Below are positions 24,001 through 27,000 of a stretch of 39,647 nt of DNA, piece after piece. Made by a program: the position numbers. The stretch lies in the IMG/VR virus record IMGVR_UViG_2718218399_000002; one strand, written 5' to 3'. The first letter of the stretch is position 1. Every line of letters begins with the position of its first letter. Source of the DNA: a virus. Taxonomy: Duplodnaviria; Heunggongvirae; Uroviricota; Caudoviricetes.

Positions 24001-27000
24001 ACAGGAGGTTTTTACAATATGGTAACGAAAAACATCACTGAACAGCGTGCGGAAGTACGTATTTTTGCCGGTAATGATCCGGCTCATACCGCCACAGGCA
24101 GCAGCGGGATTTCCTCGGCAACACCGGCACTGACGCCCCTGATGCTGGATGAAGCCAGCGGGAAACTGGTGGTCTGGGACGGACAGAAAGCCGGTAGTGC
24201 AGTTGGCATACTGGTACTGCCGCTTGAAGGCACAGAGACGGTACTGACCTATTACAAGTCGGGGACCTTTGCGACGGAGGCAATCCGCTGGCCTGAAAGT
24301 GTGGATGAACACAAAAAGGCAAATGCCTTTGCCGGCAGTGCCCTGAGTCACGCGGCGCTGCCGTAACACGTTATCAGGCCACCGCGGTGGCCTGACTGAT
24401 TTCTGAATGAAAGGAACTGATTTATGGGATTGTTTACGACCCGCCAGTTACTCGGTTATACCGAACAAAAAGTGAAATTTCGTGCGCTGTTTCTGGAGCT
24501 GTTTTTCCGCCGTACGGTGAATTTCCATACCGAAGAGGTGATGCTGGACAAAATTACCGGAAAAACGCCGGTGGCGGCCTATGTCTCCCCGGTTGTTGAA
24601 GGAAAAGTGCTGCGTCATCGCGGTGGTGAAACCCGCGTGTTACGTCCGGGCTACGTCAAGCCGAAACACGAATTCCCCTGGAGCCGGTAAAAGGAGCCGG
24701 TACCACCCTGTGGGTTTATAACGGTCAGGGTGACGCCTATGCAAACCCGTTGTCAGACGATGACTGGCAGCGACTGGCTAAGGTGAAGGATCTGACGCCG
24801 GGCGAGATGACGGCAGAATCCTACGATGATAACTACCTGGATGATGAAGACGCGGACTGGACCGCGACCGGGCAGGGGCAGAAATCTGCAGGTGATACCA
24901 GTTTTACGCTGGCCTGGAAACCGGGAGAGGAAGGCCAGAAAGGGCTTATAGGCTGGTTTGAAAGCGGCGATGTCCGGGCCTATAAAATCCGTTTTCCGAA
25001 TGGCACGGTGGATGTGTTTCGTGGCTGGGTCAGCAGTATCGGTAAGGCCGTGACGGCGAAAGAAGTGATCACCCGCACGGTGAAAGTCACTAACGTGGGT
25101 AAACCTTCTGTAGCGGAAGAACGCAGCAAAATTACGCCGGTCAGTGCGATTAAGGTGACGCCGACATCCGGTACGGTGGCAAAAGGGAAAACAACCACCC
25201 TGACGGTTTCTTTTGAGCCGGAAAGTGCAACAGACAAGACGTTCAGAGCGGTTTCCGCCGATCCGTCGAAAGCCACCATTAGTGTGAAAGATATGACAAT
25301 TACGGTAAACGGCGTGGCGACAGGTAAGGTGCAGATCCCTGTGGTGAGCGGAAATGGTCAGTTCGCCGCAGTGGCTGAAGTCACCGTTACTGAAGCGGGC
25401 GCTGCAGGGTAAACGGAGGTCATACATGTTTCTGAAAACAGAACAATTTGAATATAACGGTGTGTCTGTCACGCTTTCCGAATTGTCTGCGCTGCAGCGT
25501 ATCGAGCATCTTGCCCTCCTGAAACGGCGTGCAGAACAGGCAGAATCCAGCGGCAACCTGCAGGTAAGCGTGGAAGATCTCGTCAGAACCGGCGCGTTTC
25601 TGGTGGCGATGTCCCTGTGGCATAACCATCCACAGAAAACGCAGTCACCGTCAATGAATGAGGCCGTGATGAAGATAGAGCAGGAAGTGCTCACCACCTG
25701 GCCTGCCGATGCCATTGCCCGGGCGGAAGACGTGGTGTTGTGCCTGTCCGGGATGAGCGGGGCTGTTCGTCCGGATACTGATATTACTGAAGTGGCGAAA
25801 AATAACACGCTGACTGATGATGATTTTTCTGCGGGAAAGTCTTCGACGGCGAGCTGAACTTTGCCCTCAGACTGGCGCGTGAGATGGGGAGACCCGACTG
25901 GCGCGCCATGCTTGCCGGGATGACATCCACCGAATATGCCGACTGGCACCGTTTTTACCGCACGCATTATTTTCAGGATACCCAGCTGGATATGCATTTT
26001 TCCGGGCTGACGTACGCTGTACTCAGCCTGTTTTTTTGCGATCCGGATATGCATCCCTCTGATTTCAGTCTGCTTGTCCCCCGGCATGAGGAAGAGCAGG
26101 TGGAGAGGCCGGATGAGGACAAAATGCTGATGCAGAAAGCGGCAGGACTTGCCGGAGGCGTCCGGTTCGGTGGGACGGAGGGCGCGATATTTTATCGTCT
26201 GCGGATGTGGCGGATGTCATGGTGGATGATGCCGCATTAATGATGGCTTCAGCGGGATTCCGGGAGGTGTGAGATATGTCCCAGCCGGTTGGTGATCTTG
26301 TTATTGACCTGAGTCTGGATGCTGTCCGTTTCGATGAGCAGATGAGCCGGGTAAGGCGTCATTTTTCAGGTCTGGATACCGACGTCAGAAAAACCGCCAG
26401 TGCTGTTGAACAGGGCCTGAGCCGCCAGGCGCTGGCTGCACAAAAAGCCGGGATTTCCGTCGGGCAGTATAAAGCGGCCATGCGAACCCTGCCCGCACAG
26501 TTTACGGATATCGCCACGCAGCTTGCCGGTGGTCAGAATCCCTGGCTGATCCTGCTGCAACAGGGCGGTCAGGTGAAGGACTCCTTCGGCGGGATGATCC
26601 CCATGTTCAGGGGGCTTGCCGGTGCGATCACCCTGCCGATGGTCGGGGTCACCTCGCTGGCGGTGGCGACAGGTGCGCTGGTGTACGCCTGGTACCAGGG
26701 AGATTCCACGCTTTCAGCGTTTAATAAAACCCTGGTTCTTTCCGGTAATCAGTCCGGACTGACTGCCGATCGCATGCTGACGCTCTCAAGAGCCGGGCAG
26801 GCAGCAGGGCTGACGTTTAACCAGGCGAGAGAGTCACTGGCAGCCCTGGTGAATGCCGGTGTGCGTGGTGGTGAACAGTTTGATGCCATCAACCAGAGTG
26901 TCGCGCGTTTTGCTTCTGCATCCGGTGTGGAGGTGGACAAGGTTGCAGAGGCTTTCGGAAAACTGACCACCGACCCTACGTCGGGGCTGATTGCGATGGT

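Follow-up and report, generated by a model that had tools for sequence, protein, structure and literature searches.

How the major capsid gene of a lambda-like prophage came to run directly into its major tail tube gene, and what such an element can still do, is the question raised by IMG/VR virus record IMGVR_UViG_2718218399_000002 (Caudoviricetes). The whole stretch of 39,647 nucleotides is referred to here as the window, and positions are window positions unless stated otherwise; it corresponds to a prophage of the O157:H7 strain 86-24, located at roughly 1,990,041-2,029,700 of CP038408.1. We consider it very probable that the junction is a scar, left when a single spontaneous deletion of 2.5 kb in this prophage's late operon, whose head genes are of the phage-21 type, joined codon 84 of the capsid gene E to codon 6 of the tail tube gene V. 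A first-pass annotation, made from the sequence alone, had proposed that E is cut and joined to V and that FI, FII, Z and U are missing, and this is borne out by the open reading frames (ORFs), by Pfam and by alignment to intact relatives.

On its upstream side the scar is adjoined by an intact head decoration gene of the phage-21 shp type, D (24019-24366, plus strand), which is labelled 'head decoration protein' in the 86-24, TR01 and Sakai annotations and is 97.5% identical to the shp-gene 7 region of phage 21. The truncated capsid gene that follows, here called E' (24424-24690, plus strand), is an ORF of 88 codons that begins MGLFTTRQLL, comprises 84 native residues followed by four out-of-frame residues (PWSR), and ends with a TAA at 24688-24690. 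Its E-derived bases are 24424-24674, that is, 83 codons plus the TT of codon 84, and residues 1-84 are identical at 84/84 positions to the intact 342-aa E of the prophage in E. coli O145 RM9873-C1. The truncation had been recognized in the first-pass annotation, with a retained length of about 86 codons that must be shortened to 84 native residues. E' covers positions 1-80 of the 329-position profile PF03864 (Phage_cap_E; E-value 1.5e-14), whereas the intact relative covers 1-329, and its 88-aa ORF falls well short of a full-length family member of about 340 aa. The Prokaryotic Genome Annotation Pipeline (PGAP) records E' as a pseudogene 'missing C-terminus', and in the Sakai annotation it appears as ECs_1110 and ECs_2730.

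The V-derived sequence starts directly at 24675 with Pro6, without the six-base spacer that had been supposed to precede it, and runs to the stop codon at 25412 (24675-25412, plus strand). The proposal of a truncated V start holds, although the first residue is Pro6 and not residue 5; at this point the family V reads MSTPNPLEPVKG and lambda V reads MPVPNPTMPVKG. The V frame is open over 24630-25412 behind a stop at 24627-24629, and its earliest ATG, GTG or TTG is the TTG at 24750. PF16461 (Phage_TTP_12) is complete in this frame (1-135 of 135, E-value 2.4e-69) and Big_2 nearly so (2-79 of 79); with the tube domain and the C-terminal Ig-like domain both present, the sequence belongs to the lambda tail tube family, and from Pro6 onward it is identical to V of the O145 RM9873-C1 prophage at 242 of 245 residues. 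However, V in the window has neither its own ribosome-binding site nor a canonical start, since the GAGGA-N5-ATG of the intact relative is deleted. The removed material comprises the C-terminal 258 of the 342 E codons, the whole of FI, FII, Z and U, and the Shine-Dalgarno sequence, ATG and codons 1-5 of V. The V frame is -1 relative to E', and therefore E' stops after its four foreign residues. RefSeq/PGAP models V as an intact 246-aa protein (WP_029208397.1) starting from an ATT (24672-25412), and the Sakai annotation begins V at an internal GTG (24783); both gene models mask the loss of the real start and ribosome-binding site.

The first intact gene 3' of the scar encodes the tail assembly chaperone G (25426-25857, plus strand; 86-24 annotation mapped by alignment), after which the order is T, H, M, L, K, I, sodC, J, lom and the tail-fibre genes. 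Compared with the full lambdoid late operon, Nu1-A-W-B-C/Nu3-D-E-FI-FII-Z-U-V-G-T-H-M-L-K-I-J, the window lacks the 3' part of E, FI, FII, Z, U and the V start. Its late operon is a deletion derivative of a lambdoid member, with the other genes in lambda order.

Comparison with intact relatives places the breakpoints at base level. The junction lies within an imperfect 10-nt microhomology (24665-24674), with the crossover at T24674, as determined by alignment to E and V of the O145 RM9873-C1 prophage and phage 204576. The E side reads AACACGAATT and the intact V side AACACCAAAT, matching at 8 of 10 positions, so that both ends have AACAC(G/C)AA(T/A)T in common; by a binomial estimate, the chance of an 8/10 match for a given site pair is ~4 in 10,000. 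In the intact relatives the E register at the breakpoint is …AAGCCGAAACACGAATT|TAATTACC… and the V register is …GAGGACGATATGTCAACACCAAAT|CCCCTTGAGCCGGTAAAAGG…, while the window reads …AAGCCGAAACACGAATT|CCCCTGGAGCCGGTAAAAGG…. A megablast search against phage genomes splits at the same place: the sequence up to 24674 matches shp/gene 7 (D/E) of phage 21 and relatives at 97.5%, the sequence from 24665 onward matches V of Shiga toxin (Stx) phages and phage 204576 at 96-98%, and the two matches overlap by 10 bases. Between the breakpoints the O145 RM9873-C1 prophage holds 2,513 bp and phage 204576 holds 2,512 bp, in agreement with the earlier estimate of about 2.5 kb. The alignment to lambda and close relatives that had been recommended thus sets the endpoints at 24674/24675, equivalent to a deletion of ~6386-8969 in lambda coordinates. 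PhiR57_1 was considered as an intact reference and set aside, as its E is suitable (96%) but its V is just 78% identical. No intact V was found with a 5' end exactly equal to the window's CCCCTGGAGCCGGTAAAAGGAGCC, and the parent sequence at the right breakpoint is accordingly approximated. A short imperfect homology of this kind suggests that the deletion may have arisen through RecA-independent illegitimate recombination or replication slippage. The junction also forms a perfect EcoRI site, GAATTC (24670-24675), which is a coincidence of the join, with GAATT derived from E (GAATTT) and C from V.

The O145 RM9873-C1 prophage, phage 204576, phage 21 and PhiR57_1 have phage-21-type heads and the common order Nu1-A-W-B-C-D-E-FI-FII-Z-U-V-G-T-H. 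Intact lambdoid relatives are 96-98% identical to the window in the flanks, yet they keep the 2.5 kb with E (342 aa), FI, FII, Z, U and the V start that the window lacks. Lambda (NC_001416; E 6135-7160, V 8955-9695) has the same architecture and homologous proteins (47/84 identical residues for E residues 1-84 and 191/245 for V), but it is distant at the DNA level and has no such deletion.

The scar is by no means peculiar to the window. When complete E. coli genomes were searched with a 71-nt junction query at a stringent E-value, the exact junction was found in 299 of 5,426 genomes (301 matching records) at 591 places, with a median of 2 per genome, and ten IMG/VR contigs carry it as well. 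Every labelled match was O157 or O157:H7, among the matches listed, and among the carriers are natural isolates of bovine, food and patient origin from several continents. An 801-base region is 100% identical in the O157:H7 genomes among the matches listed, with about 300 records at 99% or above. A 5-kb query was found with at least 80% coverage in 1,836 complete E. coli genomes. The O157:H7 matches sampled align to it as a single piece at 99.9%, whereas the remaining matches sampled, representing ~1,500 genomes, align as two pieces across ~7.5 kb, that is, with E-FI-FII-Z-U-V intact. The best two-piece match sampled is that of E. coli O145 RM9873-C1 (98.1%), which is annotated with a major capsid protein (342 aa), FI, a head-tail joining protein, a tail protein (Z), U and V. 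The scar is fixed in every O157-labelled genome among the matches listed, with two prophages per genome.

In strain Sakai the two copies belong to prophages Sp4 and Sp14, which carry the same element as the window with the identical junction at ECs_1110/1111 and ECs_2730/2729. In Sp4, ECs_1110 is annotated as 'phage head protein' (267 nt) and ECs_1111 as 'major tail protein', and ECs_2730 and ECs_2729 are their counterparts in Sp14. In EDL933, Sp4 and Sp14 have historically also gone by the names CP-933M and CP-933U. In a three-way alignment with the window, Sakai Sp4 and Sp14 show zero differences from 18560 (in nu1) to 27990 (in H), an identical block of ~9.4 kb (18560-27990, plus strand) that holds the 3' part of nu1, A, W, B, C/Nu3, D, E', V, G, T and the 5' part of H, with the scar inside. 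Past 27990, in the rest of the tail region, 224 aligned sites distinguish the two prophages, and for the most part their early regions are unrelated. Because the scar sits in a block that is base-for-base identical between otherwise diverged prophages, a single deletion event is most likely, which homologous exchange or gene conversion would then have carried over into the other prophage.

Instead of one deletion followed by copying, two deletions might have occurred independently at a microhomology hot spot, or the fragments might have been joined in vitro by EcoRI cloning; we regard either route as very unlikely. A microhomology could in principle be reused, and the EcoRI site at the junction is perfect. 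However, 9.4 kb of perfect identity around the scar, next to tail regions that differ at 224 aligned sites, is what block copying predicts and not what two events predict, and the non-O157 genomes sampled (among the ~1,500 with the late region) all have the intact arrangement. The cloning artefact is rejected on the origin of the bases, GAATT being native to E and C to V so that no linker or restriction site is required, and the occurrence of the scar in natural isolates also argues against it. The O55:H7 strain CB9615 was considered for dating the event. Its serT attachment site between yccA and hyaA (1257237-1259734) is empty, which shows just the absence of an Sp4-type prophage at that position, and the dating was given up.

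Nothing contradicts the deletion itself, but three points limit the reading of a single deletion that was copied and left V silent. Just 3' of the junction, two positions in both intact relatives have other bases than the window (CTT vs CTG and GGT vs GGA), and the 8/10 microhomology is therefore measured on relatives and not on the parent. Gene conversion, duplication of the deleted prophage and acquisition of two deleted phages may each account for the second copy, all three being compatible with the data. Furthermore, V may be translated at a low level from the ATT at 24672, the CTG at 24708, the TTG at 24750 or the GTG at 24783.

A different possibility is that the scarred block has been kept for a reason, with the 88-residue E' fragment, or a start-less V made in small amounts, interfering with capsid or tail assembly in lambdoid phages that share the cell or superinfect it, or with the two scarred prophages living as satellite-like parasites on intact relatives; the 9.4-kb block would then be upheld by repeated gene conversion and would double as an inversion hinge. 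Two hints, and only these, point to such retention, namely that the scar is fixed in all 299 genomes and that the body of V is undamaged, and we think it improbable to a high degree.

Even less likely, in our view, is a functional E'-V fusion or a recoded V, which might be produced by a -1 slip of tRNA-Pro on C CCC (24675-24678), by a C4-to-C5 phase variant, or by a start at the ATT at 24672. The two frames differ by exactly -1, the C run would permit perfect re-pairing of the P-site tRNA-Pro as judged from the sequence, the V coding body is intact according to Pfam, and PGAP models a 246-aa 'phage tail protein' from ATT 24672; in the fusion route, residues 1-85 encoded by the E' ORF would be followed by V. 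However, GAA TTC CCC TGG contains no programmed -1 frameshift site, as TTCCCCT is not a canonical X XXY YYZ heptamer, and the RNA fold downstream of the C run is unremarkable (z = -1.4, with 19/200 shuffles folding equally well). The first-pass annotation was right in its arithmetic that a C5 run would fuse the two frames, but the idea is unsupported since the C4 run is ancestral in V and invariant. The run is native to V, as intact V reads AAATCCCCTTGAG and both intact relatives have AAATCCCC. In 301/301 matching records the best copy of the junction agrees with the 71-nt query at 100% of its bases, so that all of these best copies have C4 and none has C5. An under-called C5 was also considered and rejected, as the finished genomes and intact V both have C4, although the assembly behind the window under-calls homopolymers elsewhere. 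No Shine-Dalgarno sequence precedes ATT 24672, and the PGAP start is a product of homology-driven modelling and no proof of translation. Moreover, a full-length V would still give no tails without U and Z, and no virions without E, FI and FII.

That an assembler collapsed or dropped E-FI-FII-Z-U-V, a concern raised by the first-pass annotation, has next to no probability left: the source assembly is imperfect and the junction region is a repeat common to two prophages, but misassembly is excluded because the identical junction occurs in 299 independently sequenced and finished genomes, mostly twice each and including Sakai and EDL933, the capsid gene is annotated as truncated in all genomes inspected, and 0 of the 13 differences between the window and the finished 86-24 chromosome lie within 800 bases of the junction.

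Returning to the reading of a single deletion, its course and consequences may be envisaged as follows. Deletion within the short imperfect homology would have joined codon 84 of E to codon 6 of V, at the cost of most of E, FI, FII, Z, U and the V start with its ribosome-binding site, leaving an E' that would end after four foreign residues and a V without a canonical start. On its own, such a prophage would be expected to form neither capsid shells nor completed heads, to be unable to terminate tails, and probably not to make the tail tube, and therefore would not be capable of autonomous virion production. The deletion would then have been transferred to a second prophage by homologous exchange or gene conversion, and recombination within the identical block would have produced the chimera found in 86-24, with its left part of Sp14 type and its right part of Sp4 type.

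This chimeric structure is evident from the alignments. The left part of the window is 99.2% identical to Sp14 over 31.2 kb, and from nu1 to the right end the window is 99.8% identical to Sp4 over 20.2 kb, including sodC and tccP2. The early region and the lysis/nu1 genes are of Sp14 type, and Sp4-type alleles prevail from H onward, through the tail end and tccP2. Sakai Sp4 carries ISEc8 in nu1 as an extra defect; by contrast, nu1 of the window prophage is intact and free of ISEc8. The window is thus an 86-24 recombinant in which the Sp14 early region with an intact nu1 is joined to the Sp4 tail end with tccP2, and the crossover must have taken place inside the identical block, somewhere in 18560-27990. 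Kinship with Sp4 and Sp14 is established by the exact junction and the flanking identity, and the chromosomal site markers, which are serT/hyaA for Sp4 and serU/mtfA for Sp14, are both present in 86-24, where the left flank is yeeJ-asnT-mtfA-serU and the right flank is serT-hyaA. These mixed flanks imply that recombination inside the 9.4-kb block inverted a large chromosomal segment.

Aligned to the finished 86-24 chromosome, the window shows 0 mismatches, but at 13 places a homopolymer run (of G in 11 cases) is one base short, namely at 11760, 11816, 11862, 19045, 19513, 20856, 21199, 22151, 23267, 26171, 26253, 27387 and 38409. These losses yield apparent frameshifts in the genes for a SASA esterase, terminase A, W, portal B, protease/scaffold C, T, tape-measure H and tccP2, and most likely are sequencing errors of the source assembly and not biology.

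Several other features of the window lie apart from the scar. Downstream of Q there is a tRNA cluster (9938-10187) with a CAT-anticodon tRNA, tRNA-Arg(tcg) and tRNA-Arg(tct), the first of which is called Met by ARAGORN and ileZ/tRNA-Ile in the Sakai annotation; phage-borne tRNA clusters are typical of O157 lambdoid prophages. A copy of IS629/IS1203 (13151-14466), 100% identical to copies in TR01, lies between the esterase gene and the lysis cassette. Toward the right end, a tail-fibre gene contains a 45-bp collagen-like repeat (37212-37302), and a minus-strand gene at 37997-38889 contains 6.3 tandem copies of a 141-bp unit at 98% identity, which are the proline-rich repeats of tccP2. In the 86-24 annotation tccP2 is a frameshifted pseudogene, and an espV fragment stands next to it before serT.

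The lesion and its biological consequence are already in the literature. All 18 Sakai prophages were re-evaluated by Asadulghani et al. (2009, PLoS Pathog 5:e1000408; PMC2669165), and Table 1 of that paper scores Sp4 as Portal +, Head D, Major tail D and Packaging D, and Sp14 as Portal +, Head D, Major tail D, Minor tail D and Host specificity D. According to the same paper, Sp4 is amplified via regional replication driven by Sp5, and Sp4 DNA was found in DNase-resistant particles, for which the authors infer complementation by other prophages, with the Sp14 terminase acting on an identical cos site (PMC2669165). The proposal in the first-pass annotation that the element cannot make virions therefore holds for the element alone, given the genes lost and the defects in Table 1, whereas Sp4 DNA is still packaged with help (PMC2669165). 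In the same source, so far as it is used here, the defect is present as a table entry; the base-level breakpoints and the microhomology come from the present analysis, which also adds how far the identity between Sp4 and Sp14 extends and how many genomes carry the scar.

As one of many catalogued lesions in the pool of defective prophages of O157:H7, the scar matters little by itself. It does, however, give at base level the reason for the head and tail defects scored in Sp4 and Sp14 and for their reliance on other prophages in mobilising the effector and virulence-regulator cargo tccP/tccP2, espJ, pchA/pchC and sodC. Scarred elements would persist as helper-dependent carriers of such cargo (sodC, tccP/tccP2, espJ and the pch regulators), being mobilised, to judge from the published work on Sp4, for which packaging is reported, only if other lambdoid prophages resident in the same cell provide the missing proteins (PMC2669165). 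For annotators, a caution is that the RefSeq model, with its ATT start, presents V as if the protein were intact. The 71-nt junction is a candidate two-copy marker for the O157 lineage, because the genomes that carry it are all O157 wherever a serotype label is shown, and the 9.4-kb identical block is a substrate for large inversions among O157:H7 strains, for example in 86-24.

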